Part shown: in pieces, positions 1 through 28,767 of the stretch | Numbering within the stretch: position 1 is the first letter of the stretch | Layout of the letters: the number at the start of each line of letters is the position of its first letter | DNA from: Candidatus Phoenicimicrobium oleiphilum | Lineage (GTDB): Bacteria; Atribacterota; Phoenicimicrobiia; Phoenicimicrobiales; Phoenicimicrobiaceae | Length of the DNA stretch: 64,000 nt | Reading direction: 5' to 3' | Assembly (NCBI GenBank): GCA_039638295.1 | Contig: JBDIWJ010000005.1 | Span: 416 to 64,415 of the forward strand | Translations under genes and position numbers: made by a program | Notes under the pieces: generated by a model | Told to the model about the DNA's origin: nothing | The model's input: the letters and a program-made list of their open reading frames with translations, nothing else | Databases searched by the model: none

Positions 1-234
1 TAAAGTTTTTCTGATTTAACCGGTTCTAACATAATAAATCTATCCTCATTTTATGGGTCTTATTATCAAAATACATCTATAATTTCAAATTTCAATTAAT
101 GTTAAAGTGGTAAATTGGCTAAGTGGCGATATCAATTATAAGTTTATTGATTATATTATACAATATAAATTTAAAAAATCCTTTTTTTTTTTTTTTTTAA
201 AATTTTTCATATTTTTCAAATAGATATAAAGCAA

Positions 235-276
235 ATAAAAAATAGGAGGCTTAAAAGCTCCTATTTTTTATTTCTC
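235..276. terminator. Palindromic hairpin (ATAGGAGGCTT-AA-AAGCTCCTAT) flanked by A-run upstream and T-run downstream; likely bidirectional intrinsic terminator ending the AOR-thiS transcript
   Basis: Inverted repeat read directly; U-tract on both strands; lies 3' of the minus-strand thiS-like gene; preceded by an 18-nt poly-T tract at 183-200. Confidence 0.55.
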
Positions 277-324
277 TATAATAGAATTATCAAATTTAAA
301 ACTTTTAATCTTGGGAAATTTTTA

Positions 325-522
325 TTACCCCCCAGCAATTGAATGGATGACCTGAACATCATCATTATCCTTAATTAAAGTATCTTTGTATTTTTCCTTG
401 GGAATATATTTTCCATTGACCTTTACTATTATTAAGGGAAAAGAATATTTACATTTTTTCAGCAGAAGATCAACGGTTAAATTTTCTTCCCATTCTCTAT
501 CTCTTCCATTTACTTTAATCAT
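325..522 (-). CDS. ThiS/MoaD-family sulfur-carrier protein (65 aa, C-terminal Gly-Gly)
   Basis: Small beta-grasp-like sequence ending in IAGG-GG; overlaps by 4 nt with upstream AOR gene (translational coupling). Confidence 0.6.
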   Translation of the reverse strand: MIKVNGRDREWEENLTVDLLLKKCKYSFPLIIVKVNGKYIPKEKYKDTLIKDNDDVQVIHSIAGG

Positions 523-2684
523 AACTGATATTTCTTCACCACTTCCAAGACTTCGGGAAAATCTATTTTTAATCTCTTAATAGTTTCTAAAGTAGGTACA
601 CCATTGGTATCCCATCCTCGTCGATTATAGACCGCATCGCAAAGTTTCTGATATTGCTCTTCTCTATACTTTCGTAGAGTTTTAATTTTTTCTTCAACTG
701 TTTTCGTCTTAATGTCAAAATCAGCTATCTCTTGAAGTTGTTGATCATAAAACTCCTTGTGTAATTCATATTCTTCCACAGTTACTGGTCCCATTGCTCG
801 ATAGGGAATTTTATCATATTCACGGGTACCAAAACCCATCCTTAAGTTGAATAGTCTTTGGAGGTTATGGACTCTTTCTGATTGTAAGATTAATTCTTCG
901 GGAGTAAGACGCTTACCAGTAACTCCTTCAAAAAGCCAACAATAATTTTCTACATGCTCCGGAACTTTTGCTGCCTCTATCCCGTGGTATTTTTGTTTGT
1001 TATCTTCGGGCTCGATATCGTTCCAGGGTAATTTACAGAGACCGACAATAGAAAACCAGGTTCGAAATAAAGGAAAATAATGGAGTGCTTCTGCTTTATC
1101 CTCAAAAGTAGGAATCTGATTATTCACCTGATCCATAAAGATAAGCCAGGATTCATCATGCTGCGGTCCTTTATTAGCTATTCCATATCCACCCTGTTGG
1201 GCTAAAGACTCTTTGGTTACATATTCAGAAAATTCCATCCCTTTACATTCCATGCCGATATCTTGTAAAAATTGTTCATCTGCCCCGTATTTCTCCACTA
1301 ATATTTTCTTTATCTGCCGAACCCCTAAACCAGCAATTTTACCGAACCCTTTTCCTTCTGCCATCTGGTGAATTAATTCTAAAGCTGCTTTGGTATTTCC
1401 AAAGTTAAGTTCTAACCCTTCAGTAATTTCCTTATTTATAATATTATTTTCGTAACATTCCATAAGAAAAGCCATAGTAGTACTGACTCCAATGGTATCT
1501 AATCCATAATTATCACAATAAAAATTAGCTTCTAAAACAAAATCAGGGTCAAAGCATCCGCAATTTCCTCCAAATCCGGCAGTGGTTTCATATTCTGGCC
1601 CATCTACCAGAACTCTTTCTCCTTTTAGGGGACCAGTTTCCAATTCAAAATTATCTACTCCATGAGAACAGCGTAAGTTACAACCGATCCAGCAGGAATC
1701 ACCTGCCTGATTCTGGGTCATCCGCTGATGCCACACTTTAGAATCTATTTTAAAAGCATCAGGATGTGAACCAAATTTAAAATTATGAACGGGTAAACAA
1801 TTATAATTCTGCATATGGTCTAACAGATTAACCGTTCCTATTTCTCTCATCCCATTCTGGATATGATCTAATTTTAATATTTCTCTGGTTATTCTTTGCC
1901 CTGCTTTTCTAATAAGCTCGGGATTAGCCACATTATTAGAATTTGCATTTACTCCAGAATATTTAATTACTATGGCCAAAATTTTTTTATTTCGAAATAC
2001 ACTCCCCGTCCCACCTCGACCAGCTTGCTTAACTCGTATATGTTTGCGTCGACTATCATACCAACTAACATTTAAGATCCCTAAATTAGTGTTCTCCGCA
2101 CCCTTTCCGGAGGAAACAATACTAATGTTTCTTCTATCTTTTTCGTTATCAGCATATCTTTCGATCAGTTTTTCGATAAGTAAATAGGTATCCGAATTCA
2201 ATCCTGTTGCTTCCTCAATAATAACTTTTCCTTGATTGCCGTCGATAAAAATAATCACATCCTGTTTGGCTTTACCTTGAATCTCTAAAAGGTCCCAACC
2301 AGAAAATTTTAAAAAAGGAGCAAAATAACCCCCTACATTATTATCATTAACTGTTGCGGTCTCGGGAGATAGGCTGACTATATGAGTCTTCCCAGTTCCT
2401 GAGTATTGGGTAATCCCACAAATTGGGCCGGTACAGAAAATTATTTCGTTTTCCGGGTCATTCCATTTAGTCCTATTAGATACAGCCTGCCACAAATACC
2501 ATATACCATAACCTCGTCCACCGGTGAAAGCTTCTTTCACCCGGGGATCAATGGGTTTTTCTTTAATCTTATTTTCTGAAAGATTTATATATAAACGCCT
2601 ATCCGTATACCCTTTTTCTACTTTTCCCGGTTCAAATTTAAAAGAGGTTAATATTTTTTTGCTTTCTTCGTTTTCTTTAAACAT
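519..2684 (-). CDS. Tungsten-containing aldehyde:ferredoxin oxidoreductase (AOR) family protein, long form (721 aa)
   Basis: N-terminal AOR_N-like GYT..R.L.INLS motif, GGRGYG, internal Cys cluster (DSCWIGCNLRC) typical of AOR 4Fe-4S/tungstopterin domain. Confidence 0.85.
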   Translation of the reverse strand: MFKENEESKKILTSFKFEPGKVEKGYTDRRLYINLSENKIKEKPIDPRVKEAFTGGRGYGIWYLWQAVSNRTKWNDPENEIIFCTGPICGITQYSGTGKTHIVSLSPETATVNDNNVGGYFAPFLKFSGWDLLEIQGKAKQDVIIFIDGNQGKVIIEEATGLNSDTYLLIEKLIERYADNEKDRRNISIVSSGKGAENTNLGILNVSWYDSRRKHIRVKQAGRGGTGSVFRNKKILAIVIKYSGVNANSNNVANPELIRKAGQRITREILKLDHIQNGMREIGTVNLLDHMQNYNCLPVHNFKFGSHPDAFKIDSKVWHQRMTQNQAGDSCWIGCNLRCSHGVDNFELETGPLKGERVLVDGPEYETTAGFGGNCGCFDPDFVLEANFYCDNYGLDTIGVSTTMAFLMECYENNIINKEITEGLELNFGNTKAALELIHQMAEGKGFGKIAGLGVRQIKKILVEKYGADEQFLQDIGMECKGMEFSEYVTKESLAQQGGYGIANKGPQHDESWLIFMDQVNNQIPTFEDKAEALHYFPLFRTWFSIVGLCKLPWNDIEPEDNKQKYHGIEAAKVPEHVENYCWLFEGVTGKRLTPEELILQSERVHNLQRLFNLRMGFGTREYDKIPYRAMGPVTVEEYELHKEFYDQQLQEIADFDIKTKTVEEKIKTLRKYREEQYQKLCDAVYNRRGWDTNGVPTLETIKRLKIDFPEVLEVVKKYQL

Positions 2685-2849
2685 TGAGCAATTTCCCCCA
2701 TTAATCTACTTAATCAAATAAAATATGTTTAAAAAATCTGTTTTCTCTAAACTCCACCAGATAAGGTTAATGAAGCCACCTTATCATCTTAAAAACCAGG
2801 ATACGATGGCTTCATTTTTGATTTTACCAATTATAAAACTAAATATGCT

Positions 2850-4529
2850 TTAAACTTCTTTTGCTTCCTTTACCTGAAGCTCAGGTAGAGGGAACGAAAT
2901 TCCAGCTGATTTTGCTGAAATACTGGAAAATAGGTAAAGCAAAATTCCTACCAATATTATTCCTAAAGGCAACACTAAAGCAACAGACATGCCACTTCCC
3001 GCCAAAATATAGCCCACTACAGCAACTCCCGCAGCAGTTAGGGAATAAGGTACCTGAGTCTTAACATGATCTATATGGTCAGAACCAGAAAACATTGAAG
3101 ACATAATAGTAGTATCAGAAAGTGGTGAACAATGGTCTCCCATAACTGAACCGGTTAATACCGCAGATATGCCTAAAGGTAAAGGAACACCCAAAGCAAG
3201 GGCTAAAGGAATAGCAATAGGCATAGCTATAGCCATAGTCCCCCAAGAAGTACCAGTGGAAAAAGAAATTATATTGCAGATTATAAATATAACCATAGGT
3301 AGTAAAACGGGAGAGATAACCCCTTTAGCAGCATTTACTACATAAGGAGCAGTTCCAATTTCATCACAAACACTACCAATTGACCAAGCAGAAATTAAGA
3401 TTAAGTTAGCTAAAACCATCATCTTAGCACCATCTATAAAGGCATCCATCATATCAGCCAGGGTTCCAATCCCCTGGGCTTTATACATTATTATGGCAAC
3501 GATTACTGCAAATACAGCGCCCCACAAAAGAGCAGTCATAGCATCAGCATCAGCAATTGCAGTAGTAAATGATTCAGCAGAGGTCCCTCCTCCAGTCCAC
3601 CACATTCCGAAAATACTCACTCCTACCAGAACTATAATGGGAACAACCATATTTATGGTCTTTTGAGGAACGCCTTCTAATACCTTTAATTTACTCCCCC
3701 CAGAAAGTGGAGTTGCTCCATCTGCAAAGACTTTACCAGTTGTCCTTGTTCGATGTTCAGCTTTTAACATAGGACCATAATCTCTTTGAGATAAGGCAAC
3801 AAATAAGACTAATAATATTGCAAAGATACTGTAGAAACGATAAGGTATAGATTGTAAAAAGATGGTATAAGGAGTCAGGGATACCGAAGTACCTTCGATA
3901 GCATCACCGATAAGTCCCACCTCATAGCCAATCCAGGTAGAAATCAGAGCTAGAGAAGCAACTGGTGCTGCAGTAGAATCGACAATGTAAGAAAACTTTT
4001 CTCGAGAAATACCCAATTTGTCGGTCACTGGTCTAAAAGCATTTCCCACTATAGCAGTATTAGCATAATCATCAAAGAAAATTATTAACCCAAAGAGCCA
4101 AGCAGTAAATTGGCCGCCGCGAGCGGTTTTTACTTTATCGGTAATGCTTTTTACAAAGGCATAAGCCCCACCAGATAGGTAGATTAAACCGATAAGTCCT
4201 CCAACTACAAAGTCAAACAATAAAATAGTAGCATTCCAACTGTCAGCAGTATTATCTACCAGGTAACCTAGGGTTTGAGTAACCCCAGCTAAAGGATTCC
4301 AACCCGTCAGTATAGTAGCACCTATCCAGATACCAATAAAGAGTGAGGCTAAAACTTGCTTGGTGATAAAGCATAAAACTATGGCTACCAATGGTGGTAA
4401 TAGAGATAAGAAACCATAACTTGCTGCAGTTTCTTCTTCTGCAGCCCAGGCAATTTCAGATAAGATAAAGAAAATTACTATCGAAAAAATTAAAAGCAAT
4501 CCAATTCTATTCTTGTGCCATTGATACAT
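2850..4529 (-). CDS. NhaC-family Na+/H+ antiporter-type membrane transporter (candidate LysW-like lysine transporter)
   Basis: 559 aa polytopic membrane protein with NhaC-like repeat architecture; last gene of a co-directional block downstream of a lysine riboswitch. Confidence 0.55.
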   Translation of the reverse strand: MYQWHKNRIGLLLIFSIVIFFILSEIAWAAEEETAASYGFLSLLPPLVAIVLCFITKQVLASLFIGIWIGATILTGWNPLAGVTQTLGYLVDNTADSWNATILLFDFVVGGLIGLIYLSGGAYAFVKSITDKVKTARGGQFTAWLFGLIIFFDDYANTAIVGNAFRPVTDKLGISREKFSYIVDSTAAPVASLALISTWIGYEVGLIGDAIEGTSVSLTPYTIFLQSIPYRFYSIFAILLVLFVALSQRDYGPMLKAEHRTRTTGKVFADGATPLSGGSKLKVLEGVPQKTINMVVPIIVLVGVSIFGMWWTGGGTSAESFTTAIADADAMTALLWGAVFAVIVAIIMYKAQGIGTLADMMDAFIDGAKMMVLANLILISAWSIGSVCDEIGTAPYVVNAAKGVISPVLLPMVIFIICNIISFSTGTSWGTMAIAMPIAIPLALALGVPLPLGISAVLTGSVMGDHCSPLSDTTIMSSMFSGSDHIDHVKTQVPYSLTAAGVAVVGYILAGSGMSVALVLPLGIILVGILLYLFSSISAKSAGISFPLPELQVKEAKEV

Positions 4530-4629
4530 TCTGAATTCACTCTCCTTTCTTTGTTTTAAGAATAAAAATTCACATAATTCAATTGCAAGCTAGACTTTTA
4601 AATATTTAAGCATTTTTAAACCTTCTAAA

Positions 4630-5955
4630 TCACCTCCTATCTTTAATTTTTTCGTTCAGGATTTCTTCTAAATCTGGTCTGCCAATTTCCTGTAATTCAT
4701 ATCTTACTCTTACTGATTTCTTGTTGATCTTAATAATTCGAGTTAGGTCTATAGGGGTACCAACGATCACTATATCGCAATCAGTAGAATTTATAGTATC
4801 TTCCAGTTCCTGAATCTGTTTTTTGCCATACCCCATTGCCGGTAATAATGTCCCTATCCCCGGATATTTAATATAAGTATCTTTAATACTGCCTACTGCA
4901 TAAGGTCGAGGATCTATAATCTCTTTTGCCCCAAACTTTTGAGCAGCTACTATACCTGCACCATACTTCATTTCTCCATGGGTTAATGTAGGCCCATCTT
5001 CAACTACCAGCACCCTTTTACCCCTAATAAGTTCGGGATAATCCACAGTAAGAGGGGAGGCAGCTTCAACTAAAATAGCATTAGGAGCAAGTTGATAGAT
5101 ATTTTCTCTGAGTAAATTTATTTTATCTGGTACAGCAGTATCTATTTTATTCATTACTACCACATCTGCCATTCTGAGATTTGCCTCTCCAGGATAGTAA
5201 GTCATTTCATGACCGGCTCGATGGGGGTCAGTAACAACAATATGCAAATCTGGTTTATAAAAGGGAATATCATTATTACCTCCATCCCAGATGATTATAT
5301 CTGCATCTTTTTCAGCTCTGGTTAATATCTCTTGATAATCGACTCCAGCATAAAGGATATTTCCTCTATCCAGATGAGGTTCATATTCTTCCCTTTCTTC
5401 AATAGTACAGTTGTAGCGGTCTAAATCGGAATAATTTTCATATCTTTGACAGATCTGTTCTTTTAGATCACCATAGGGCATTGGATGCCTGATTACAGCT
5501 ATTTTATAACCTTTCTTCTTCAAAATATCTGTAACTTTGCGAGTAGTCTGACTCTTGCCGCAACCAGTTCTAACTGCACAAATAGATACCACGGGCAGAT
5601 TGGACTTTAACATAGTACTCTTGGGTCCCATTAATCTAAAGTCCGCCCCACTGGCTAAAACTATTGAAGCTTTATCCATAACATATTGATGCGAAAGATC
5701 GCTATAAGCTAAAATTACCTGGTCAATCTGCTTCTCCCTTATTAGTGCAGGCAATTCTTCTTCGGGATATATAGGTATACCTTCGGGATATAAAGACCCA
5801 GAAAGTTCAGCGGGATATTTTCTACCGGCAATATCCGGAATTTGAGTAGCGGTAAAGGCAACTACCTCATAACCAGAATTATTTCTAAAATACACATTAA
5901 AATTATGGAAATCTCTTCCAGCAGCTCCCATAATTAAAACTTTAATTTTACTCAT
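4630..5955 (-). CDS. COG2403/DUF1611-like P-loop protein (cyclic 2,3-diphosphoglycerate synthetase-like predicted GTPase/ATPase)
   Basis: N-terminal Rossmann-like MSKIKVLIMGAAGRD, central Walker-A-like CAVRTGCGKSQTT; function not assignable from sequence. Confidence 0.4.
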   Translation of the reverse strand: MSKIKVLIMGAAGRDFHNFNVYFRNNSGYEVVAFTATQIPDIAGRKYPAELSGSLYPEGIPIYPEEELPALIREKQIDQVILAYSDLSHQYVMDKASIVLASGADFRLMGPKSTMLKSNLPVVSICAVRTGCGKSQTTRKVTDILKKKGYKIAVIRHPMPYGDLKEQICQRYENYSDLDRYNCTIEEREEYEPHLDRGNILYAGVDYQEILTRAEKDADIIIWDGGNNDIPFYKPDLHIVVTDPHRAGHEMTYYPGEANLRMADVVVMNKIDTAVPDKINLLRENIYQLAPNAILVEAASPLTVDYPELIRGKRVLVVEDGPTLTHGEMKYGAGIVAAQKFGAKEIIDPRPYAVGSIKDTYIKYPGIGTLLPAMGYGKKQIQELEDTINSTDCDIVIVGTPIDLTRIIKINKKSVRVRYELQEIGRPDLEEILNEKIKDRR

Positions 5956-6043
5956 TAAAATTCCTCCGTTTTATATTATATAATAATTATTCGACAAAAC
6001 TTTTTAAATTCCTCTTTTTTTTACCTATTTTTTCAATTTTTTA

Positions 6044-7348
6044 TCAAACTTTAGCTATTGCCTTCTCTAACACCTCTAAGGCCTCATCCAACTGCTCATC
6101 AGTAATCTCTAAAGAGACCAACATTCTCAAAACATTCTTGTTAATCCCTGCGCCAGCAATAAGTACTCCATTTTTTACACATTCCTGTATAACTTGAGCT
6201 GTCTCTTGGGTGGCTGGTTCTTTAGTCTTTCGGTCTTTTACCAGTTCTATAGCCATCATCGCCCCTATACCACGCACATCACCTACTATAGAATATCTAT
6301 CTTTCATCTTAAGAAAACGCTCTTTCAATCTTTCCCCAATCTTCAAGGCTCTTTCTAAGAGTTGTTCTTCTTCGATAATTTTTATCACCTCCAGGGCTGC
6401 CCGGCAGGCTAATGGATTACCTACATAGGTTCCACCAATACACCCGCCAGGAAGGGTATCGGTAATCTCTTTTTTGGTAATTACTGCCGAAAGAGGAAGG
6501 CCAGAAGCTAAAGACTTGCCCAGACAGATAAGGTCTGGCTCTATATTCCAGTTTTCTATGGCATAAAACTTTCCAGTCCGACCTATACCACTCTGAATCT
6601 CATCGGTGATAAGTAACATACCGTATTTCTCGGTCAATTCTCTTAAATATTCTAAAAATCCCTCCTGAGGGACATTAAATCCTCCTTCTCCCTGGATAGG
6701 TTCAACCACTATAGCAGCGACAGAGTCAGGGATTACAGTATTTACCAGTATCTTTTCAAAATCTTCTATATCAGCCATAGGATGAGAAGAACTGGGGAAA
6801 GGTAAGCGATATATCTCGGGGGCAAAGGGTCCGAAGTGGTATTTATAAGGCATAGCCTTGTGGGTCATAGTCATAGTAAGCAAAGTGCGACCATGGAAGG
6901 CATTTTCGAAGACAATAATAGCTGGTCTTTTGGTATGTGCCCTGGCAATCTTTACCGCATTTTCTATTGCCTCTGCTCCGGAGTTAAAAAAGGCGGCTGA
7001 CTTGGGAGTGCTCCCGGGGGCCAACTTAACTAATTTTTCAGCCAGTTCTACCAGAGGCTCGTAAGGGACAGCAGTAAAATCGGTATGCAGATATTTTTCT
7101 GCCTGGTCTTTAATAGCAGCTACCACTTTCTTGTGGGTATGGCCTACGGCCAGACATCCCCAGCCTCCAGTAAGATCGATTAATTGATTACCATCTACGT
7201 CAGTGACTAAAGCCCCCTCTCCATAGGCAATATAACAGGGGGAAAGAGAACCGCTCATAGGTTTGGCTACATACTTTTCTCTTTTTTTAGCAATTTCTTG
7301 AGATTTTGTTCCAGGTAGACTGGTTTTAAGAGAAATAAATTTACTCAT
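6044..7348 (-). CDS. Class-III PLP-dependent aminotransferase (GabT/acetylornithine/DABA aminotransferase family)
   Basis: Motifs ITDEIQSGIGRTGKFYA and LICLGKSLASGLPLSAV (PLP-lysine region) typical of class-III aminotransferases. Confidence 0.8.
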   Translation of the reverse strand: MSKFISLKTSLPGTKSQEIAKKREKYVAKPMSGSLSPCYIAYGEGALVTDVDGNQLIDLTGGWGCLAVGHTHKKVVAAIKDQAEKYLHTDFTAVPYEPLVELAEKLVKLAPGSTPKSAAFFNSGAEAIENAVKIARAHTKRPAIIVFENAFHGRTLLTMTMTHKAMPYKYHFGPFAPEIYRLPFPSSSHPMADIEDFEKILVNTVIPDSVAAIVVEPIQGEGGFNVPQEGFLEYLRELTEKYGMLLITDEIQSGIGRTGKFYAIENWNIEPDLICLGKSLASGLPLSAVITKKEITDTLPGGCIGGTYVGNPLACRAALEVIKIIEEEQLLERALKIGERLKERFLKMKDRYSIVGDVRGIGAMMAIELVKDRKTKEPATQETAQVIQECVKNGVLIAGAGINKNVLRMLVSLEITDEQLDEALEVLEKAIAKV

Positions 7349-7556
7349 TTAATCATTCTCCTTTAATCTAAATTTTTAATTAGTTAATAGTAAATAATCG
7401 CTGGTCGTTAGTTTAAAAATCAAAACTTTTTTCGTATAAATTATTGCTTTTTTACTCCATTTCGATTTTATATAAATCTTTTCCTGACAATCTTGTTAGA
7501 ATAAATATACTGTCTTTTAAACTTGTGCCCGTGAAAACGGGTAAAAGTATCCTTGT

Positions 7557-7591
7557 AAGAGCATCGGAATTTTAGAAATTCCGATGCTCTT
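7557..7591. terminator. 35-nt perfect palindrome (16-bp stem) 20 nt downstream of the stop of the 7613-8857 gene; intercistronic terminator/attenuator or protein-binding site
   Basis: AAGAGCATCGGAATTT-TAG-AAATTCCGATGCTCTT read directly; no clean U-tract on the mRNA strand. Confidence 0.4.
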
Positions 7592-7612
7592 AAATTATCT
7601 TTTAGTACCTTA

Positions 7613-8857
7613 TTATATCTTTTGAGAAACCTCAAGTATATTTATCTTTCTTCTTTTCAATTCTTCCAAGAAGTTCTGATAGACTTTTCCTTCTATAGCA
7701 TCCTCAGGAGCAACTATGCCCTTCTTGGTTATCTCTCCTTTTCCTAACATCACAGTAGTGATAGCCTCTGGAAAAGCAGTAACTCTTGCCATTGCTGAAA
7801 TACCATTCTCAGTATCTGCCTCCTCCCACATATAATAATCAATTCTCATTTTTTGGCTATCTTTTATCCCGGTAACTGTATTCCACATTACACATACATC
7901 AGTTTCACCTTCTAATGGTTTAAGTTTAGGTGTCATTATAAAGGACAAAAACTCACGGGGAGTAATTTTCATACTTTTAAATTCTACCGGAGTAGAATCT
8001 AACATTCCACATTCCTTCAATACCTTCGCCCCCTCCCAGTGACCTGGCCAACGAATGGTCTTCTCTGCACATTCTTTAAGTTGTGGTCTGGTATAAAGAA
8101 AGCTGGGCATCCCCGGAGTAATGGCGCAGGTTAATTCTTCATCTTTACCTAATTGATTAAATCGAAACTTTTCAAGATCATCCATTGCATTTGCTTCTAC
8201 GATTTTACCATTCTTGATTACATCTACCTTGATCATATATTCTCTTAAAACATGCTCAAATGCCCAGGTAATCATATATTTTAAAGGATGATTGTTAGCA
8301 TATTCTTTTGCCGGAATACCCCCACATCTGGCTATGGCTGATTCTGCCTGGCTCATTTTTTTGATTCCTTCACCTAAAGTAATATTAGTTAACCCTGGAG
8401 CAAAACCTGCTCCATCAACAATAGTCACTCCATTCTTTATTGCTCTTTGGTGGAGTGATTCACCATATTCATCCAGGGTCATCCCATCAGGAATTTCTAA
8501 TCCTTCAACCTCATATTTATCTGGTCTTCTATGATACTCTTCCAAAATATCAACAATATTAAGTCCAGCCTCCACAGCCATATTTACTACTTTGTAGCTA
8601 CTTCTTCTATCTGGCAGAGCAATTGCGCCTACATCATATTTTTCCATTAATTTCATAGTCTCTTTTCGATTGTTTACGTCAACAATATGTAATACTACCT
8701 TATCACTGCCTATCCATTTTTTAGTCTTTTCCAGGGTATTCTCTCTCCTACCAGTAATTCCTATAATTCCTACTTCTCCAACTTTGCTGTTTTTAGCCAA
8801 ATCCCAGGCAACTGCTGAACCCATTTTGCCTGAGCCTCCAAAAACTAAAACCTTCAT
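7613..8857 (-). CDS. Saccharopine dehydrogenase-family NAD(P)-binding oxidoreductase (paralog 1; LysDH/saccharopine reductase/carboxy(nor)spermidine DH-like)
   Basis: N-terminal Rossmann MKVLVFGGSGKMGSAVA, GFAPGLTNI motif, 414 aa; first gene after a lysine riboswitch. Confidence 0.7.
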   Translation of the reverse strand: MKVLVFGGSGKMGSAVAWDLAKNSKVGEVGIIGITGRRENTLEKTKKWIGSDKVVLHIVDVNNRKETMKLMEKYDVGAIALPDRRSSYKVVNMAVEAGLNIVDILEEYHRRPDKYEVEGLEIPDGMTLDEYGESLHQRAIKNGVTIVDGAGFAPGLTNITLGEGIKKMSQAESAIARCGGIPAKEYANNHPLKYMITWAFEHVLREYMIKVDVIKNGKIVEANAMDDLEKFRFNQLGKDEELTCAITPGMPSFLYTRPQLKECAEKTIRWPGHWEGAKVLKECGMLDSTPVEFKSMKITPREFLSFIMTPKLKPLEGETDVCVMWNTVTGIKDSQKMRIDYYMWEEADTENGISAMARVTAFPEAITTVMLGKGEITKKGIVAPEDAIEGKVYQNFLEELKRRKINILEVSQKI

Positions 8858-9099
8858 ATATTTTTCCTCCTTCTTTGGTTATTTAGTTATTAAAACAGTC
8901 GATAGTGAATAGTCGTTAGTCGTTAGTTTAAAACTCAAAACTTTTTCGTATAAGATATTGCTCTTAAAGTAGGGGTCGGATTTATTCGACCTGTTTTTAT
9001 TGCGGGTTCGATTAATGAGCACTTACGATAACAGGAAATTCCTATACCATTTAGTTAACTAGCTATCTTTAAGATGACATTTGCTAATAAAAAATCTAC

Positions 9100-9365
9100 C
9101 AAATAAAAAAGGCAATTAATGATAGAGCCTTCATTAATTGCCTAACTTTGTTCCCCCTAATTTAGATGAAGTACTCTATCTTGAGGTAGCGCTCCATCTA
9201 AATCGGGGGACAGATTTGATGACAGTCTTATAGTTATTCACTATAAGCCCAGCAAGAAGATTTTATCTGATCTTTCTTGCTTCGGCGGAAATACCTTTCT
9301 GGGCAAAGTTCTAAACTATTCACCCTTACTCATTATTATCCGCGCCTCTACCTTGTATTATTTTA
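9100..9365 (-). promoter_or_regulatory. Lysine riboswitch (L-box) with intrinsic-terminator expression platform
   Basis: On minus strand: GGTAGAGGCGCGG ... CGCCGAAGCAAG ... CTGGGCTTATAGTGAATAA ... AGACTGTCATC ... GGAGCGCTACCTC (L-box conserved blocks), then antiterminator GATAGAGTACTTCATC and terminator GGCAATTAATGA-AGGCTCTATC-ATTAATTGCC followed by TTTTTTATTT (9105-9142 on + strand). Confidence 0.8.
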
Positions 9366-9485
9366 AATACAAGTAAATATTAATTTGTGAAACTTATTTT
9401 AGTAGACTTAAATTCTTAAATTACCACCTCCTCATTTAATCTACCAATTATACAATTGACCAATTTACCAATCAAATTAATGTAA

Positions 9486-10622
9486 TCACACTTTAATTAT
9501 ATTTTCTTTATAGAACACATTTCTTTTTTCTAATTCTTTCATTACCCTCTGATATACTTTATGTTCCCTGCCTATATATTCTGGAGGAGAAATCCCTTTA
9601 CGGGAATATTCTCCCTGAGCTACCAGGCGAGCCATAATTGCACAGGGAAAACCAGTCGTACGTGACATAGAGGTAGCTTCCTCATTCTCGTCATAATAAT
9701 CTAATAAATCATAGATATAACATAGTCTTTTTTCTTCTTTCTTACCTTGAACAATTACCCTCATCACTGTTAACTCTCTTTCTCCTTCTTTTAATCCCCA
9801 TTTGGAAAAAAGCAATTTAGAGGCAACATCTATAGGGCTGACTTTTACCCCTCCTGCTTCTATAGGTTTTTCATTAAAAAATCCTGTCTCTCTTAACATC
9901 CGCATCTTTTCCGCATACCCTGGATAACGCAAGGTCTTCTCTCTCATAGAGGGAATTTTAATGGTGTAAAGTAGACTACGAAGTCCATCAGTATTAAAAG
10001 CTTCTAAAGTACCAATTCCTGGTAAATCAACCAATTCAAGATCAGAAAGCGCGGGTTTTTCTACAATTTTTCCGCATTCAATTAATCTTGCCGGTCTTAT
10101 ATATTCTTCTATAACATCTTTAGGAGACCAGGCAATTTTATATTCATAAGGCCATTCTCTTATTACTGGAAGCCCTCCTACTAAAATAGTAGCACTCTCG
10201 GTTTTATCCAACAGGCTATAGACATAACCTACAATCATATGACTCATCCCCGGAGCTACTCCCATATCCACCACAGCAGTTACTCCTCTACTTTTAGCAA
10301 GCCCATCCAGGCTTAAAGTATCTTCAGCCATAAATGATATATCAACTATGTTCTTACCAGCTTCAATAACCGACCGCAACATATTAAATCCTAAAAACCC
10401 TGGAACAGCACCAATTACAATATCTTGATCAGCAACTATCTTTTTAATATCACTCGAAACAGATAAATCTGCTTTTACACCTCTTATTCCTGCATCTTTT
10501 GTTAACTTATCCAATCTTTTTTCATCAATATCTGCTACAGTTACTTGAATATTTTTATCTTTTGCTAAATCTTTGGCAATTAATCCGCCTACCAAACCAC
10601 AACCCAGTACTATTGCTTTCAT
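9486..10622 (-). CDS. Saccharopine dehydrogenase-family NAD(P)-binding oxidoreductase (paralog 2)
   Basis: N-terminal MKAIVLGCGLVGGLIAKDLA Rossmann fold, 378 aa, same family as 7613-8857 but divergent. Confidence 0.7.
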   Translation of the reverse strand: MKAIVLGCGLVGGLIAKDLAKDKNIQVTVADIDEKRLDKLTKDAGIRGVKADLSVSSDIKKIVADQDIVIGAVPGFLGFNMLRSVIEAGKNIVDISFMAEDTLSLDGLAKSRGVTAVVDMGVAPGMSHMIVGYVYSLLDKTESATILVGGLPVIREWPYEYKIAWSPKDVIEEYIRPARLIECGKIVEKPALSDLELVDLPGIGTLEAFNTDGLRSLLYTIKIPSMREKTLRYPGYAEKMRMLRETGFFNEKPIEAGGVKVSPIDVASKLLFSKWGLKEGERELTVMRVIVQGKKEEKRLCYIYDLLDYYDENEEATSMSRTTGFPCAIMARLVAQGEYSRKGISPPEYIGREHKVYQRVMKELEKRNVFYKENIIKV

Positions 10623-10649
10623 ACTTTTATTGTTTCCTTTCCTTATTTT

Positions 10650-12023
10650 CTATTTATCGCTTACTAAAAGTTTCATATATTCTCCGATTTCATTGATATT
10701 CTCTAATTCCTTAGTGGCTTTTATAATATCCTCCATTCTGGAAGGAGAGATTTTTTTCTCAGAGTTGGCTTTAAATTTAGAAATAAGTTCTTCTTCGCTT
10801 AGAGGCCGCTCCGATTGGCCTTTGGCGAAATCTTCCTGTTTTTTATATTCTCCCTTGGAAGTTTTAATGGTCACAATAGCTCGTTTTACTTTGGGGAAGA
10901 GGGCATCTATTTCAGGGTTGGCTATTACCTTAATCTTTTCGAGCAATGACCAGACAAAAGGGTCTCGTAAGGCATCTTCTTCAAAATCAGAAGGAAGGAC
11001 ATTGCCCTTAGCTACTGCAACTGCTATACAGTAGGGTAGTGAATGGTCAGCAGTCTCTTTAGTAGTAGGTTTATATTTACTGGGGTCAGAAAGAATATCT
11101 GCCCCCCGAGTTGTAGTCTCTACTAAAACTTCTTTTACTTCTTTTGGGTCAATACTATTTTCTTGCATAACTTCTAAAGCAGCAGTAATGGGCTGATGAG
11201 TTAAAGCTTCAGTGGGAAAAGCTTTATAACCACATTGATTAATCAGAAATTTTTCTCCTAATCCTTTGGTTAAAACATCTCTATCCCATTTTACTTTATC
11301 CAATACTTCAAACAATCCTTCTTTACCTTCAAATACTTCTACCGGACCGGTATAACCTCTGCTGGCCAGTAAGGCAGCCCGTACACCCGCCTCCACAGCG
11401 AAAGGATCGGCCGCATTTTTCATATTAGTAAGATGACCGGCTACTACTCCTCCTAAAGTAAAATGAGAAGAACCGCTAATCCCGAGGGCAGCGACTATCT
11501 CATCTTCGCTTAGTTCCAACATCCTTCCGGCTACTACAGGACTTACCAATTGAGTTAGGGTTGCATGATGCCAGCCTATCTCCCGAACTCCCGGGGAAGC
11601 AGCCTGACATAGACGCATCTCTAATTCATAAGCAATCACTATCCCCAACAGTACTTCTTCCCCATTTTTCTTCATAAATTCTCCAGTACTAAGGACGGCA
11701 GGGATAATATCTGAAGGATGGGAGGGATCTTGTTCCCAGTAGATGTCATTATAATCCAAAGCCCTAATAAGTAAGGAATTCAACAAAGTAGCTAGTGGCA
11801 AATTGGTTTTCTCTCCCCACCCAATAACAGTACTTTGTTTCTTTCCACCTAAATCTCGAATGTAATTATAAGCTGCTTGGGTATCTTTATTATTCAAAGC
11901 AGAAAAGGCACACCCCACACTATCTAAAAGAAACCTTTTAGCCTCTTTTATAGCTACAAAAGGAATATCTTTATAATTTAATCCGAGGGTAAACTTAGCC
12001 CATTTTTGACTTATGGTCTCCAT
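10650..12023 (-). CDS. MmgE/PrpD-family dehydratase (2-methylcitrate dehydratase-like)
   Basis: 457 aa; N-terminal FLLDSVGCAFSA and overall MmgE/PrpD architecture. Confidence 0.75.
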   Translation of the reverse strand: METISQKWAKFTLGLNYKDIPFVAIKEAKRFLLDSVGCAFSALNNKDTQAAYNYIRDLGGKKQSTVIGWGEKTNLPLATLLNSLLIRALDYNDIYWEQDPSHPSDIIPAVLSTGEFMKKNGEEVLLGIVIAYELEMRLCQAASPGVREIGWHHATLTQLVSPVVAGRMLELSEDEIVAALGISGSSHFTLGGVVAGHLTNMKNAADPFAVEAGVRAALLASRGYTGPVEVFEGKEGLFEVLDKVKWDRDVLTKGLGEKFLINQCGYKAFPTEALTHQPITAALEVMQENSIDPKEVKEVLVETTTRGADILSDPSKYKPTTKETADHSLPYCIAVAVAKGNVLPSDFEEDALRDPFVWSLLEKIKVIANPEIDALFPKVKRAIVTIKTSKGEYKKQEDFAKGQSERPLSEEELISKFKANSEKKISPSRMEDIIKATKELENINEIGEYMKLLVSDK

Positions 12024-12255
12024 TTTTTCACCTTCCTTTTAATTTGGTTAGTTGATTACCTAGTTACCTGGTTCGCTAGTTAACCGGTCTTCTAGTCATT
12101 TCAGTCGTTAACCTCTACTGTATAGGTTTGAATTTATTCGACCAAAATTATTTGGTAATCTTTTTAGCGGGCTCGATGAATCGAGCCCCTACTTCTGGCT
12201 TCTGGATCTTTAACTCGTAACCTGTAATTTATAACCCATTACTTATTACTCATTA

Positions 12256-13383
12256 CTAATTACTTTGTATTTTTCTGGCTACTTCCCTGGCTACATCTAA
12301 AGTTGAGGCTGTTCCGCCTAAATCATAGGTCCTGACTTTTCCTTCCTCAATGACCTGAGCAATAGCATTTTCTAATCTTTGAGCCAATTCTTTTTCCCTT
12401 AAGTAATCCAACATTAATTTAACTGTTAAAAGCATGGCCATAGGATTTACTTTATACTGCCCTGCATACTTAGGAGCAGAGCCATGAGTAGGCTCAAAGA
12501 CGGCATAGTCATCACCAATGTTAGCACTAGAGGCAAAACCTAAACCTCCTACCAATTGTGCACATAAGTCAGAAATTATATCGCCGAACATATTAGAAGA
12601 AACCAAGACACTATAATTTTGAGGGTTCTTAACCAACCACATACACATTGCATCTACATTGGTTTCCCACAATTCAATCCCGGGATATTCTTGAGCAATC
12701 TTACGAGCTTCTCTTATCATTAATCCACTGGTTTCTCTGATTACATTAGGTTTTTCCACAACTGTAACTGAATTCCTTTTAAACTTCTTAGCATATTCGA
12801 AGGCTTGTCGAACAATTGATTGGCAAGCTTTTCTGGTAAAAATTCGGCAGGATAGAGCAATATCTTCTAAAGGAGTATCTTTGAATCTTTTCATTTTAGG
12901 ATGATTTTTTAAAAGAGAATCCATTACTTCTTTAGGTAGAGGATGAAATTCTATCCCACTGTATAACCCTTCGGTATTTTCTCGAAAAACTACCAAATCT
13001 ATATCGTCTCTATAATTCAAAGGATTTCCTTTGTAGGCTTTGCAGGGTCTCAGGTTAGTATGTAACTTAAATTCCTGGCGTAATCTTACAATAGGGCTCG
13101 AATAGACATAACCCTTTCCTTTAACTTCAGGAGCAAGTTCCTTTTCTGCTTCCTCTTTAGGTTTAGAGGTTATTGCTCCAAAGAGACAACAATCAGTTTC
13201 TTTAAGAATTTTTATGGTCCTATCAGGTAAAGGGTTTCCTTCTTTTTTCCAAAATTTCCAACCAACATCGCCGGGTATATAATCAGCATCCAGTTTTAGC
13301 ACATCTAATACGATCTTCGCTGCCTCCATTACATCATTTCCGATTCCATCACCCGGCAGCCAGGCTATCTTATATTTTGCCAT
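12256..13383 (-). CDS. Isocitrate/isopropylmalate dehydrogenase-family enzyme (LeuB/homoisocitrate DH-like)
   Basis: N-terminal IAWLPGDGIGNDV, 375 aa beta-decarboxylating dehydrogenase fold. Confidence 0.8.
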   Translation of the reverse strand: MAKYKIAWLPGDGIGNDVMEAAKIVLDVLKLDADYIPGDVGWKFWKKEGNPLPDRTIKILKETDCCLFGAITSKPKEEAEKELAPEVKGKGYVYSSPIVRLRQEFKLHTNLRPCKAYKGNPLNYRDDIDLVVFRENTEGLYSGIEFHPLPKEVMDSLLKNHPKMKRFKDTPLEDIALSCRIFTRKACQSIVRQAFEYAKKFKRNSVTVVEKPNVIRETSGLMIREARKIAQEYPGIELWETNVDAMCMWLVKNPQNYSVLVSSNMFGDIISDLCAQLVGGLGFASSANIGDDYAVFEPTHGSAPKYAGQYKVNPMAMLLTVKLMLDYLREKELAQRLENAIAQVIEEGKVRTYDLGGTASTLDVAREVARKIQSN

Positions 13384-13386
13384 TTT

Positions 13387-13890
13387 TTATTCTCCCTTCT
13401 CTGCTCTCAATATTTTTTTAATATGAGGAATAAGCCCCCCATCTTTAAGAATTCCTAATACCGATTCCGGTAAAGGAGGGAAATTAAAAACTCCCTTTTT
13501 ACAAGATAATTCGCCTTTCTCGAAATCAATAGTAATCTCCTCACCCGGAGATACATTTTCCGCTGCTTCTTTACACTGAACCAGGGGAAGTCCCTGATTA
13601 ATAGCATTTCGAAAAAATATTCGAGAAAATGATTTGGCAACAATTGCTCCTACACCGGCATATTTTAGGCAGGTTGCGGCTTGTTCCCGAGAACTACCAC
13701 AGCCAAAGTTCCTTCCCGCGACAATAATATCTTCCTTTTTAACTTCTTTGGCAAACTTCGGATCAAGGTCTTCTAGGGCATGAAGAGCCATCTCTTTGGG
13801 GTCTGTTATGGTATAAGTATATTTCCCCGGAAAAATAACATCGGTATTTACATCATCGCCATATTTCCATACTTTTCCTTTAATACTCAT
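13387..13890 (-). CDS. 3-isopropylmalate dehydratase/homoaconitase small subunit (LeuD-like)
   Basis: 167 aa aconitase swivel domain; overlaps the large-subunit gene by 4 nt. Confidence 0.8.
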
Positions 13891-15146
13891 TTTAAATCCC
13901 CCCTTATATCAGTAATTTCACCGTAAAGGGAAGAGATAGCGACGGTTGCCGGACTAGCTAAGTAAACTTCTGCCTCTTTACAGCCCATCCTTCCTTTAAA
14001 ATTTCTATTAGCTGTACTCAAGCAAACTTCTCCCGGAGCTAAGGCCCCTTCGTGAGCTCCTAAACAAGGGCCACATCCCGGATTCATTATTACTGCCCCA
14101 CTTTTAACTAATTCCTGAAGGATTCCTAATTCCATCGCCCGGGCAAAGACCTCCATCGAGGCCGGAAAGACTAAAAGTCTAACTCCGTTAGAAATCTTTT
14201 TACCACGAAGAATCTCGCTGGTAATTTTTAAATCTTCTATCCTTCCGTTGGTACAGGTCCCAATTAATGCTTGGTTAATCTTGGTCCCTGCCACTTCCGA
14301 AACAGGTTTTACATTGTCTACTGTGTGAGGGCAGGCAATTTGAGGTTCTAAACTACTTATATCGTAATCTATGATTTTTTCATACTCAGCATCAGTATCT
14401 GACTTTATTATTTCGTATTTTTTATTGGTTCTTGCGGTAAGCCACTGTATGGTTTTTTCATCCGGTTCTACATAGCCGATCTTTGCTCCCATCTCCACCG
14501 CCATATTGCATAGAGTCATCCTGCCCCCGATATCCATATCCCTAATTACTTTTCCGCTAAATTCTACTGCCCTATACAATGCTCCATCCGCACCTAAATC
14601 CCCAATAATGTGGAGGATTATGTCCTTGGGATATATTCCGGGGGGAATTTCCCCTTTAATATTTATTTTAATAGTCTCCGGCACTCTAAGCCAGATTTCA
14701 TCTGTAGCCCATATAGAAGCTACTTCACTTCTGCCAATCCCAGTTGAAAAAGCACCAAATGCTCCATAAGTAGTGGTATGTGAGTCGGCTCCTAAAATTA
14801 AAGTCCCTGGAAGTACATAACCCTTTTCCGGTAAAACCTGATGGCAGACTCCGGTATTAATATCATAAAAATTTTCAATTTTCTGTTCCTGGATAAATTC
14901 TCTTATCTCTTTATGATTAGTAGCATATTTCTCTGTTGCTGCCGGAACACAATGATCTAGAGGTATTACTATTTTTTCAGGATGTTTTACCTTATCAATT
15001 CCAATCTGATTGAATTTTTTGGCTATAGCAGCAGTATTATCGTGAGACATTACTATATCCGGAGATACAGTTACAATTTCTCCAGCAATTACACTTCCCT
15101 TACCCGATTTAAGAGCTAATATTTTCTCTGCAAAGGTTTTTCCCAT
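13887..15146 (-). CDS. 3-isopropylmalate dehydratase/homoaconitase large subunit, short (archaeal-type, ~420 aa) LeuC-like
   Basis: Aconitase-family Cys ligand region (GTCTNGR...GCGPCLG), 419 aa. Confidence 0.8.
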
Positions 15147-15160
15147 TTTTACCCTTCTCC

Positions 15161-15691
15161 TTATCTAAATTGTTCGAAGTTAGTAAAATCAGCATGATGA
15201 ACAATAATGGCTTCCGGGATTCTCTTAGAACGATCTCCTTCCCAGGAATGAGAGGCAATAATATGCATTACTTCTTCCGGAATTCCTTGACTGTAACAAA
15301 GACCTACTCCGGATATAGGATGACGTACCAGCTTCCCCAAATTACTCTGAATAAATTTTCCGTTCTTCTCTTTATATTCTACTAACTTCCCAATATCGTG
15401 AAGCAATGCCCCGGCAATAAGATAATCCTCATTTATTTTCACTTTATCTTCATAGATGCTTTGAAGAGCTTTCGCCGCCCCTATCGAAACATTTACTACT
15501 CCCCTAATATGTTCAATCATACTACAAGGACAGGGATCAATTAATAAAGTAAAAGGCATTCTCTGCAGGTCACTCACTTTCCATCCCCCAGCAGCAAGAG
15601 CAATCTCCCAAACTTTCAAAACCTTTTCCTTCAAATCTGAATCTTTGATTAAATTAAATTCCGGAATAAATTTTAATAAATCATCTCTCAT
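15161..15691 (-). CDS. HD-domain phosphohydrolase
   Basis: HD motif (LLHDIGK ... HHAD) in 176-aa protein. Confidence 0.65.
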   Translation of the reverse strand: MRDDLLKFIPEFNLIKDSDLKEKVLKVWEIALAAGGWKVSDLQRMPFTLLIDPCPCSMIEHIRGVVNVSIGAAKALQSIYEDKVKINEDYLIAGALLHDIGKLVEYKEKNGKFIQSNLGKLVRHPISGVGLCYSQGIPEEVMHIIASHSWEGDRSKRIPEAIIVHHADFTNFEQFR

Positions 15692-15702
15692 CTTTTCCCT
15701 CC

Positions 15703-16032
15703 TTATTCCTCGTAAGGTATTTTGATCTCCAAAAGTGGAGCGTGTTGTTGAGCACCATAAACATCAGTCTCCCCGATGCTGCCTGAATCTACTGGCCTTA
15801 CAATAGTTGCTTTTATAGCATTAGCGGGGTCAAATTCTACAAAATAAAGAACTTTTTCGATGGGAACATGGTAAAGTTTGGCAATAAGTTCTTTGGTAAT
15901 TACTTTGGTTTTCTTGACTTTTTCGTAAGTTTCCTTGTCTTTAAAAATTATATCAAAGGTCAACTCAAAGGGGCCAGCATTTTTACTTCTGATTACGCTT
16001 GCTAAGTCTATAATAGAAACCTCTTTAGTCAT
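15703..16032 (-). CDS. Small DUF4387-like protein (partner of AtuA-like DUF1446 proteins)
   Basis: 109 aa, directly downstream of and co-oriented with a DUF1446-like gene; assignment by recalled family pairing. Confidence 0.4.
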   Translation of the reverse strand: MTKEVSIIDLASVIRSKNAGPFELTFDIIFKDKETYEKVKKTKVITKELIAKLYHVPIEKVLYFVEFDPANAIKATIVRPVDSGSIGETDVYGAQQHAPLLEIKIPYEE

Positions 16033-16065
16033 TTATATACTCTCCTTTTTAAATTCCTTATTATT

Positions 16066-17424: not shown

Positions 17425-17504
17425 AATATATATCTCCTCACTTCTACAAGATTGTCAGGGGAGTGAGCTCCCCTCCCATTCTTAATACATTTTTCAATCT
17501 AATT

Positions 17505-26042: not shown

Positions 26043-26043
26043 A

Positions 26044-27815: not shown

Positions 27816-27863
27816 TTTTCCTCCTATAATTAGTGCTCTATTAAATAAAGTATGTTATATTTC

Positions 27864-27960: not shown

Positions 27961-28000
27961 CAAAACTATCCTACCTTAGTTAACTTAGCAGTAGTTATTT

Positions 28001-28729: not shown

Positions 28730-28767
28730 CTTAATCTTAACCTCCTTTTCCCCTTTTATATTTACTT

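Follow-up and report, generated by a model that had tools for sequence, protein, structure and literature searches.

In textbook accounts lysine riboswitches turn biosynthesis and uptake OFF, and Atribacterota/JS1, which dominate deep anoxic sediments, have almost no cultured members. Here we describe a lysine riboswitch, and the six-gene operon behind it, on the minus strand of a 64,000-nucleotide stretch of Candidatus Phoenicimicrobium oleiphilum, a member of the Atribacterota (contig JBDIWJ010000005.1, positions 416 to 64,415; the whole stretch is called the window hereafter). Like the classical OFF riboswitch, or L-box, of Bacillus subtilis lysC, it sets a five-helix aptamer in a 5' leader and places an intrinsic terminator after it. 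Unlike the classical form, it has no antiterminator in which the aptamer 3' strand joins the terminator 5' arm, and it carries an extra relay segment that would invert the logic. In its regulon Pfam/NCBIfam scans recognised no lysC, dap or lysA gene; a LysW-type transporter is present. A second precedent is the group of lysine riboswitches predicted to regulate positively the kal/kce lysine-fermentation genes of Clostridium sticklandii, Fusobacterium nucleatum and Thermoanaerobacter spp. (PMC5584792), the sole activating examples reported so far and confined to Firmicutes and Fusobacteria. The present locus resembles these in placing a lysine aptamer before genes that would consume lysine and in its predicted activation by lysine; compared by gene set and phylum it differs, since there are no aminomutases, kal, kce or kdd here and the phylum is Atribacterota. 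A literature search returned no paper linking a lysine riboswitch, or lysine, to this gene set or to Atribacterota. The regulon thus appears not to have been described before, joining a sensor of known kind to an expression platform that appears to be inverted and relay-type. Such a locus would represent a compact and conserved ON design of aptamer, relay strand and terminator-loop mimic, and would make lysine a ligand-based functional handle on six genes in Atribacterota/JS1. It would also imply that Atribacterota sense and consume free lysine, and would tie to lysine metabolism a widespread saccharopine dehydrogenase subfamily, a P-loop family resembling cyclic 2,3-diphosphoglycerate (cDPG) synthetase and a divergent tungsten-dependent aldehyde:ferredoxin oxidoreductase (AOR).

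The sensor is an ordinary member of Rfam family RF00168. When the whole window was scanned against Rfam (cmscan), RF00168 (Lysine; gathering score 30 bits) was the sole match above the gathering score, aligning 9358..9179 of the minus strand to model positions 1-182/182, untruncated, with 111.5 bits and an E-value of 6.8e-29. An earlier note, made from the bare sequence of the window, had placed a lysine riboswitch at 9100-9365 on this strand, and this covariance-model check bears it out. The aptamer (9179..9358, helices P1-P5) contains all the conserved junction blocks, and the L-box motifs that the note had read by eye were all found between 9349 and 9183: AGAGGCGC at 9349-9342, GCCGAAG at 9286-9280, TGAATAA..ACTGTCA at ~9240-9220 and GGAGCGCTACCTC at 9195-9183. 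Every upper-case consensus position of the five-helix junction blocks (AGAGGnGC, GCCGAAG, CUGG, ACUGUCA and UGGAGnGCUACC) is matched in the RF00168 alignment, as are all those of the P2 AUGAGUA/GAAAGG motif. That the element is a genuine lysine riboswitch is a near certainty on this evidence, lysine binding itself being predicted from the sequence. A permissive Rfam scan (E up to 1) of 7300-9600, which spans the long leader and the intergenic regions, gave nothing credible as a second RNA family.

Downstream of the aptamer, at 9101..9143, lies an intrinsic terminator with a 13-bp stem (AGGCAAUUAAUGA / UCAUUAAUUGCCU), an 8-nt loop and a U-tract, identified by terminator scan (hairpin 9143-9110, T-run 9109-9101), by folding and by its recurrence in 17 leaders. 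Between aptamer and terminator runs a relay segment, X (GAUAGAGUACUUCAUCUAAAUUAGGGGGA, 9152..9180; its 3' half is CUUCAUCUAAAU), which has two alternative partners. The first, at 9188..9210, takes in the loop and 3' arm of P5, then J5/1 and the first part of the P1 3' strand, and is identified by duplex energies, shuffles and covariation. The second is the terminator top (AUGAAGGCUCUAUC, 9121..9134), comprising the uppermost 4 nt of the terminator's 5' arm, the entire loop and the initial 2 nt of its 3' arm; its role as the partner of X in an antiterminator is supported by pairing across 11 species and by shuffles. In the minimum free energy (MFE) structure of the full-length leader P5 is opened, 9210-9188 is paired with X at 9175-9152 and the terminator is also formed. 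Enforcing the aptamer fold, to mimic bound lysine, releases X, whose 5' half (GAUAGAGUACUUCAU, 9180-9166) pairs with AUGAAGGCUCUAUC (9134-9121), a helix that appears in the fold once 9134-9121 has been transcribed, ahead of the terminator 3' arm. The folding of the minus-strand leader that the earlier note had proposed as a check confirmed its terminator and revealed the alternative helices of X instead of a classical L-box platform. The other half of what it called a 'textbook terminator/antiterminator' did not hold: a duplex of the aptamer 3' strand with the terminator 5' arm reaches only -3.4 to -6.8 kcal/mol across 11 species, trying the aptamer 5' part as well gave nothing beyond -3 to -7 kcal/mol, and the MFE structure keeps the terminator, so weak a pairing that the classical antiterminator is taken to be absent. 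The possibility that the helix of X with the terminator top is itself the terminator was also rejected, the U-tract sitting 10 nt past the 3' end of that helix.

Both helices formed by X are strong and conserved. Duplex energies, computed on 11 leaders (one per species), range from -23 to -33 kcal/mol for X with the aptamer 3' part and from -15 to -21 kcal/mol for X with the terminator top. In constrained folds of 17 leaders, the antiterminator forms in all 17 before the terminator 3' arm is transcribed, with 14-17 bp and -12.6 to -23 kcal/mol, and the unliganded MFE structure of every leader combines the helix of P5 3' arm and X with the terminator. Neither complementarity is readily obtained by chance: the antiterminator (-17.8 kcal/mol, z = -5.3) and the duplex of X with the aptamer 3' part (z = -5.8) were each matched by 0/2000 dinucleotide shuffles. 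Across the 11 species 98.1% of antiterminator cells are paired, against 40-58% in slid registers; for the anti-antiterminator the figure is 86.8% against 28-62%, and three of its pairs are changed on both sides. Column-wise pair counting is unreliable for the tail of X because of indels, and was replaced there by a test of matched against mismatched duplexes. The P5 loop of lysine riboswitches is free to vary and therefore offers the cleaner test of pairing with the X tail: each loop fits its own tail better than those of other leaders (matched -6.66 vs mismatched -5.09 kcal/mol), and only 9/10,000 permutations did as well. The terminator loop, by comparison, is nearly invariant in the 17 leaders. 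Hairpin loops normally vary freely, so such constancy is unusual, and it would be expected of a loop that serves as a pairing partner.

The sole structure that competes with the terminator requires a folded aptamer, and for this reason the switch is most likely ON, a polarity that we hold with good, though not high, confidence from folding and comparative analysis. In silico, the antiterminator is available solely when the aptamer is folded, and the unliganded fold keeps the terminator; the folding thus points to the reverse of the polarity implied by an L-box with a terminator and antiterminator. A three-helix relay ON design is predicted to be common to all 17 leaders. Without lysine, X would invade the aptamer through base pairs to J5/1 and the P5 3' arm, to which most species add the P5 loop; with X sequestered, the terminator at 9143-9101 would form and transcription would stop, as would any read-through from the upstream operon described below. 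Bound lysine would lock P5 and the five-way junction, leaving X free to capture the upper terminator with its 5' half over 14-17 bp as soon as this is transcribed. The resulting antiterminator would sterically exclude the lower terminator stem until the polymerase is past the U-tract, and lysine would thereby induce a six-gene lysine-utilisation operon. Taken whole, an ON relay riboswitch inducing such an operon is the explanation that we regard as moderately probable; what the analysis shows are the aptamer, the terminator, both alternative helices with their conservation and the gene families, and its polarity, the single transcript of all six genes, their substrates and the order of the steps are what we infer.

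The predicted transcription unit after the riboswitch comprises six genes, all on the minus strand. Gene 1 (7613..8857) encodes a 414-aa enzyme of the saccharopine dehydrogenase family (Sacchrp_dh; PF16653 7.8e-47, PF03435), a distant relative of L-lysine 6-dehydrogenase (LysDH; EC 1.4.1.18). No NCBIfam family matched it, and its best PDB match, over residues 1-407, is the LysDH 3ABI (3e-29), an enzyme from Pyrococcus horikoshii (PMC10413350). It has a ~35-residue insertion and is 30% identical to the 378-aa paralogue encoded upstream. An identity as carboxy(nor)spermidine dehydrogenase (CASDH) was considered and rejected, the match to 8deb being only 3e-9 and weaker than that to LysDH; nor did the protein clusters that recur beside gene 1 orthologues include a recognisable carboxyspermidine decarboxylase. 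Gene 2 (6044..7348) encodes a 434-aa class-III aminotransferase resembling GabT and PuuE (PF00202, Aminotran_3, 3.4e-127; PuuE 3e-111). It falls below all equivalog cut-offs, scoring 522 vs 676 bits for PRK06918 and 497 vs 506.65 for TIGR00700, both models of 4-aminobutyrate (GABA) aminotransferase (GABA-AT), and 385 vs 650 for the 2-aminoadipate transaminase model NF049976. PP_4108 of Pseudomonas putida has been characterised as an L-2-aminoadipate aminotransferase that also acts, as a side activity, on 5-aminovalerate and GABA (bioRxiv 10.1101/450254).

Gene 3 (4630..5955) encodes a 441-aa P-loop protein of the COG2403 type with the Walker A motif RTGCGKSQ, a weak cobW match and a distant homology to cDPG synthetase. 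The single sequence matches 9sxb at 1e-3, while a profile of 26 diverse COG2403 members reaches 1.5e-20 in two aligned stretches (the N-terminal and P-loop domains), with 8oru at 7e-15 and HypB at 3e-6. The likeness to the cDPG synthetase of Methanothermus fervidus (8ORK/8ORU, 9SXB) is thus one of homology in the N-terminal and P-loop kinase domains, Walker A included; unlike it, gene 3 belongs to another lineage, shows very low identity, stands in a context of amino-acid metabolism and has no 2-phosphoglycerate kinase (2PGK) in its operon. Public records name it 'cDPG synthase', in all probability an over-annotation. The family is large, at about 3,900 clusters at 50% identity. One representative (P0127) has an amino-acid-kinase-family domain fused to the COG2403 module, and in another (P0214) the P-loop protein is interrupted by an intein with a LAGLIDADG domain. 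A carbamoyltransferase gene adjoins COG2403 relatives in two of five distant contexts, and no other pattern was seen in those five. Gene 4 (2850..4529) encodes a 559-aa membrane transporter of the NhaC family (Na_H_antiporter, PF03553 7.8e-68) with weak matches to the NhaC and ArcD (arginine/ornithine antiporter) models. Family membership and placement inside a lysine-riboswitch operon make it LysW-type, lysine transport being predicted; among the lysine transporters linked to riboswitches, lysW (COG1757, NhaC-type) is the one found most widely (PMC5584792), and the note's naming of the family as LysW was correct. Gene 5 (519..2684) encodes a divergent 721-aa AOR-family protein of the tungstopterin type (AFOR_N 2.1e-47, AFOR_C 1.1e-101), nearly equidistant in a PDB search from AOR (1aor 9e-46) and FOR (1b25 1e-44). 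Its stop codon is overlapped by the start of gene 6 (325..522), a 65-aa ThiS/MoaD-like protein with a GG end (PF02597 3.9e-12) that is kept after the AOR gene in other species. The families that the note had assigned to four controlled genes outside the lysC/dap/lysA set were borne out, and two further genes, for the AOR (2684-519) and the ThiS-like protein (522-325), extend the operon beyond the limit that it had drawn.

Upstream of the riboswitch, on the same strand, lies a second operon (9486-18263) with the order GntR, AtuA-like, DUF4387, HD, LeuC- plus LeuD-like, homoisocitrate dehydrogenase-like, PrpD-like and LysDH-like. Its last gene (9486..10622) encodes the 378-aa saccharopine dehydrogenase paralogue, which is LysDH-like (3ABI 4e-65), and no terminator was found between this gene and the riboswitch. 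The large and small subunits of the aconitase family are closest to the methanogen homoaconitase (Hac/Aks) models, and they are accompanied by the isocitrate/homoisocitrate dehydrogenase-like protein. GntR/FCD regulators, of which this operon has one, usually control catabolic operons. The earlier note's proposal of an uncharacterised lysine-responsive pathway agrees with the literature search, which turned up nothing linking the gene set to lysine, but it had overlooked this neighbouring operon. The remainder of the window is catabolic, with two xanthine dehydrogenase-family enzymes and their maturation genes, a hydantoinase-like amidohydrolase, a carbamoyltransferase and carbamate kinase, an indolepyruvate:ferredoxin oxidoreductase, an ADP-forming acyl-CoA synthetase and an amino-acid ABC transporter. 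Nowhere in the 64 kb is there a gene of the diaminopimelate (DAP) pathway.

If lysine induces the operon, then uptake followed by oxidative catabolism is the simplest reading, and the ON polarity and catabolic surroundings together favour utilisation over biosynthesis, a conclusion in which we place moderate confidence. Lysine would enter through the NhaC/LysW-type transporter, and its epsilon-amino group would be removed by oxidative deamination to give 2-aminoadipate semialdehyde (AASA), through a LysDH-like enzyme of the kind whose paralogue is encoded just upstream. The semialdehyde would be oxidised to 2-aminoadipate in a ferredoxin-dependent step by the tungsten AOR with its MoaD/ThiS-like partner, and the GabT-like class-III aminotransferase would transaminate 2-aminoadipate to 2-oxoadipate, with the cDPG-synthetase-like P-loop enzyme adding an ATP-dependent step on an unspecified substrate. 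These individual steps, read from family membership and context, are offered tentatively and could well be wrong in part. They parallel the aminoadipate-semialdehyde branch of lysine degradation (LysDH PH1688/3ABI, AASA dehydrogenase AmaB, 2-aminoadipate aminotransferase PP_4108), in which the proposed course from lysine through AASA/piperideine-6-carboxylate (P6C) and 2-aminoadipate to 2-oxoadipate likewise involves LysDH-family enzymes and a class-III aminotransferase. The differences are that gene 1 is related to LysDH only distantly and that the predicted activities here would include a ferredoxin-dependent tungsten AOR in place of the NAD-dependent AASA dehydrogenase, an anaerobic solution, as well as an extra P-loop enzyme. 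Conversion of 5-aminovalerate to glutarate is an alternative for the aminotransferase and AOR pair. It recalls the DavT/DavD (GabT/GabD) module, in which a GabT-like omega-aminotransferase is followed by semialdehyde oxidation, but the operon has an AOR instead of an NAD(P)-dependent semialdehyde dehydrogenase and no enzyme that forms 5-aminovalerate (DavBA, decarboxylase).

More speculatively, the two operons, that of the riboswitch and the GntR-controlled one beside it, might jointly encode an undescribed anaerobic 'reverse alpha-aminoadipate' pathway, with the lysine-ON riboswitch gating entry. Here lysine would pass through aminoadipate semialdehyde (LysDH-like enzymes), 2-aminoadipate (tungsten AOR reducing ferredoxin) and 2-oxoadipate (class-III aminotransferase) to homoisocitrate by reductive carboxylation (homoisocitrate dehydrogenase-like), then to cis-homoaconitate and homocitrate (LeuCD-like, PrpD-like). 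Cleavage to acetyl-CoA/acetate and 2-oxoglutarate would follow, by AtuA/DUF4387 in Atribacterota and by a CoA-transferase with an HMGL-type lyase in Anaerolineales. A literature search found nothing on a homocitrate lyase or reverse aminoadipate route, on AtuA/DUF4387 function or on Atribacterota lysine metabolism. We consider this extended scheme improbable as it stands; if true, the link to the neighbouring homoaconitase and homoisocitrate dehydrogenase genes would make it a new anaerobic lysine degradation route.

A search with the 414-aa protein across GTDB, taking a single genome for each species, yielded 65 loci, among which the complete riboswitch operon and the upstream operon recur in Atribacterota only. 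Every Atribacterota locus with enough upstream sequence has the riboswitch ahead of the operon (10 species beyond the window, 99.8-119.5 bits). It is also present on seven further metagenomic contigs, the only true leaders among 120 loci returned by an unspecific metagenome scan with a 15-nt anchor, and in 18 contigs it is strictly tied to this operon. It is always flanked by the 378-aa paralogue on one side and the downstream operon on the other; that operon includes the COG2403-NhaC-AOR genes wherever the contig reaches far enough. Gene 1 orthologues 50-70% identical occur in many phyla; no riboswitch was found near those of Zixibacteria, Chloroflexota, Acetothermia, Acidobacteriota, Thermoplasmata and Bathyarchaeia, and the association is taken to be specific to Atribacterota because a regex search upstream of these orthologues gave only loose chance matches. 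Outside Atribacterota gene 1 mostly stands alone, with informative neighbours only in Dehalococcoidia and Anaerolineales. Four Dehalococcoidia loci (L031, L032, L034 and L036; e.g. L034 10001-13998) carry the alpha, beta and gamma/delta subunits of a 2-oxoacid:ferredoxin oxidoreductase within ~80 nt after the orthologue. In Anaerolineales (Chloroflexota) the orthologue stands in a cluster of isocitrate dehydrogenase (ICDH)-like, HMGL-like (330 aa), family-III CoA-transferase, LeuC, LeuD, gene 1 and M20 peptidase genes (L060 4199-12454; also L061 and L062), which would fit a homocitrate-type tricarboxylate pathway in the degradative direction. On an Aerophobetes contig (L063) a 67% identical GntR gene directly precedes the 414-aa orthologue, and a single-cell genome contig (SCGC AAA255-G05; L053 592-661) has a group II intron domain match (RF00029, 46.7 bits) upstream of its GntR gene.

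Several observations weigh against an ON relay that induces lysine utilisation. Polarity is read from folding and comparative analysis, and even in full-length folds with an enforced aptamer the terminator outdoes the antiterminator in stability by 0-13 kcal/mol, so that ON behaviour needs kinetic trapping or control, which is common among transcriptional riboswitches. The lower 9 bp of the terminator formally stay unpaired in the antiterminator and would be blocked only sterically; by topological reasoning rather than computation these pairs should be unable to form, since in the resulting H-type pseudoknot a 2-nt loop would have to span a 14-bp helix. Substitutions in the antiterminator are all one-sided and G.U-preserving, with 0 compensatory double changes among closely related sampled species, and the loop-tail extension is missing from the two most divergent leaders (L012, L013). 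On the side of the enzymes, gene 1 is only a distant relative of LysDH (3e-29) that stands alone and riboswitch-free in most other phyla, and the highest scores of gene 2 are to GABA-AT models. Neither gene is indispensable, because one locus (L174, 9225-12590) passes from the riboswitch to the aminotransferase without the 414-aa gene and another (L011, 10001-12813) has no aminotransferase. Finally, internal promoters could reside in a 62-nt repeat found ahead of genes 1 and 2, and the NhaC/LysW transporter with the aminotransferase, reductase and LysDH-like genes would also suit an operon for biosynthesis and uptake that lysine represses.

This last possibility, a classical OFF riboswitch repressing a variant alpha-aminoadipate lysine biosynthesis and uptake operon, would have 2-oxoadipate from the HacAB/HICDH-like neighbours transaminated by the class-III aminotransferase. 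The delta-carboxylate would then be activated or reduced by the P-loop enzyme and an acid-reducing AOR and the semialdehyde reductively aminated by the LysDH-like enzymes, with a LysW-type importer alongside. Biosynthesis and transport are indeed the usual lysine-riboswitch regulon and lysW its commonest transporter (PMC5584792), and AORs are reported to reduce acids in vivo (PMC10816221). The homoaconitase- and homoisocitrate dehydrogenase-like genes upstream, nearest to methanogen Hac/Aks models, and the company that gene 1 keeps in Anaerolineales, where ICDH, an HMGL-like enzyme (the homocitrate synthase fold), LeuCD and an M20 peptidase surround it, point the same way. The family-III CoA-transferase of that same cluster, however, suits degradation more than synthesis, Pfam/NCBIfam scans recognised no homocitrate synthase in the Atribacterota operons and the GntR/FCD regulator is of the catabolic sort. 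Repression also lacks a structural foundation in the leader, which offers no means of preventing termination without lysine, and the conserved complementarity of X to the terminator top would be purposeless; we judge an OFF switch unlikely. The stability of the terminator, which is thermodynamically favoured at full length in most leaders even with the aptamer enforced, could instead mean that it is effectively constitutive, the leader mainly ending transcripts of the upstream operon or yielding a short stand-alone RNA while the downstream genes are read from internal promoters, for example in the 62-nt element. The absence of a terminator between the upstream gene and the riboswitch, the 250-nt leader with its inserted element before gene 1 and the second copy before gene 2 would all be consistent with this. 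Species free of the insertion, however, keep aptamer, relay and terminator ~70 nt from the ribosome-binding site (RBS), the riboswitch is strictly linked to the operon in 18 contigs, and the conservation of X, of both its partners and of the terminator loop, together with loop-tail covariation, speaks for a working switch, making a constitutive terminator very improbable.

A further explanation accepts the ON switch and disputes what it turns on: the operon might convert excess lysine to a product (pipecolate or another compatible solute, a lactam, or a carbamoylated or phosphorylated derivative), or detoxify or export it, with the P-loop enzyme and transporter as its core. The invariant part of the regulon is COG2403-NhaC-AOR, whereas gene 1 or the aminotransferase can be absent, and NhaC-family proteins can be exchangers, the transporter here showing a weak match to an ArcD antiporter model. 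COG2403 is homologous to an extremolyte-making enzyme, cDPG synthetase (PMC10690619); one lineage fuses it to an amino-acid-kinase domain, and a carbamoyltransferase is adjacent in two of five distant contexts. Set against this, a dehydrogenase, transaminase and aldehyde oxidoreductase in one operon form a classic amine-to-acid catabolic module, the genomic neighbourhood is catabolic, and the cyclase, reductase and acetyltransferase typical of solute synthesis are not present in the operon. Conversion or export is in our view distinctly unlikely, and induction of lysine utilisation by an ON relay is the reading that we retain.

Other elements of the leader and intergenic regions may contribute to expression. 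A candidate promoter, TTGATT-17-TATAAT (9447..9475, minus strand), is the best sigma-70-type match in positions 1-10000, a consensus match only, at 10/12 positions; leaders of other species show more proximal -10-like boxes. Directly 5' of the aptamer, an 8-bp hairpin, P0 (9352..9373; CTTGTATT / AATACAAG), shares the initial 2 nt of P1 with its 3' arm. It is paired in 95.5% of cells against 26-60% in slid registers, has three pairs with compensatory changes and a covariation score matched by 1/500 shuffles, and may mark, protect or stabilise the 5' end of the transcript. Between terminator and gene 1 the leader of the window runs to 250 nt; it contains, just before the RBS of gene 1, the first copy of the 62-nt element (8902..8962), whose second copy, of 87% identity, lies before the RBS of the aminotransferase gene (7387-7448). 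The leader copy belongs to a ~160-nt insertion that is present in the leaders of some species and not in others, and the repeat might act as an internal promoter or a standby site, or represent a small mobile element. 'ACUAAC'-type repeats stand ahead of the RBS in all leaders. After the stop codon of gene 1 the earlier note had seen a palindrome, and it is indeed there, as a perfect 17-bp repeat at 7556..7592; it is no canonical terminator because no U-run follows on the coding strand, and it is confined to strains like that of the window, other species having 109-126-nt spacers in its place. The operon ends, as read from the sequence, in a terminator-like hairpin flanked by A- and T-runs at about 232..269, and a run of ~19 A residues follows shortly past it on the minus strand (~182-200).

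Elsewhere on the minus strand of the window, at ~20400-45300, lies a cluster that we take to resemble the ygeW-xdh anaerobic purine-degradation region of E. coli. It contains two xanthine dehydrogenase-family molybdoenzymes with FAD subunits, XdhC, a MobA-like protein, YqeC, a class-V aminotransferase (cysteine-desulfurase-like), a hydantoinase-like amidohydrolase, a carbamoyltransferase, carbamate kinase and an IclR regulator, with a PEPCK gene alongside. At 24990-29832, on the same strand, an ABC transporter (ATPase, permease and binding protein) stands beside DUF364 ('heavy-metal chelation') and a MoCF_biosynth-domain protein; it might import tungstate/molybdate and take part in handling cofactors for the nearby AOR and Xdh enzymes.

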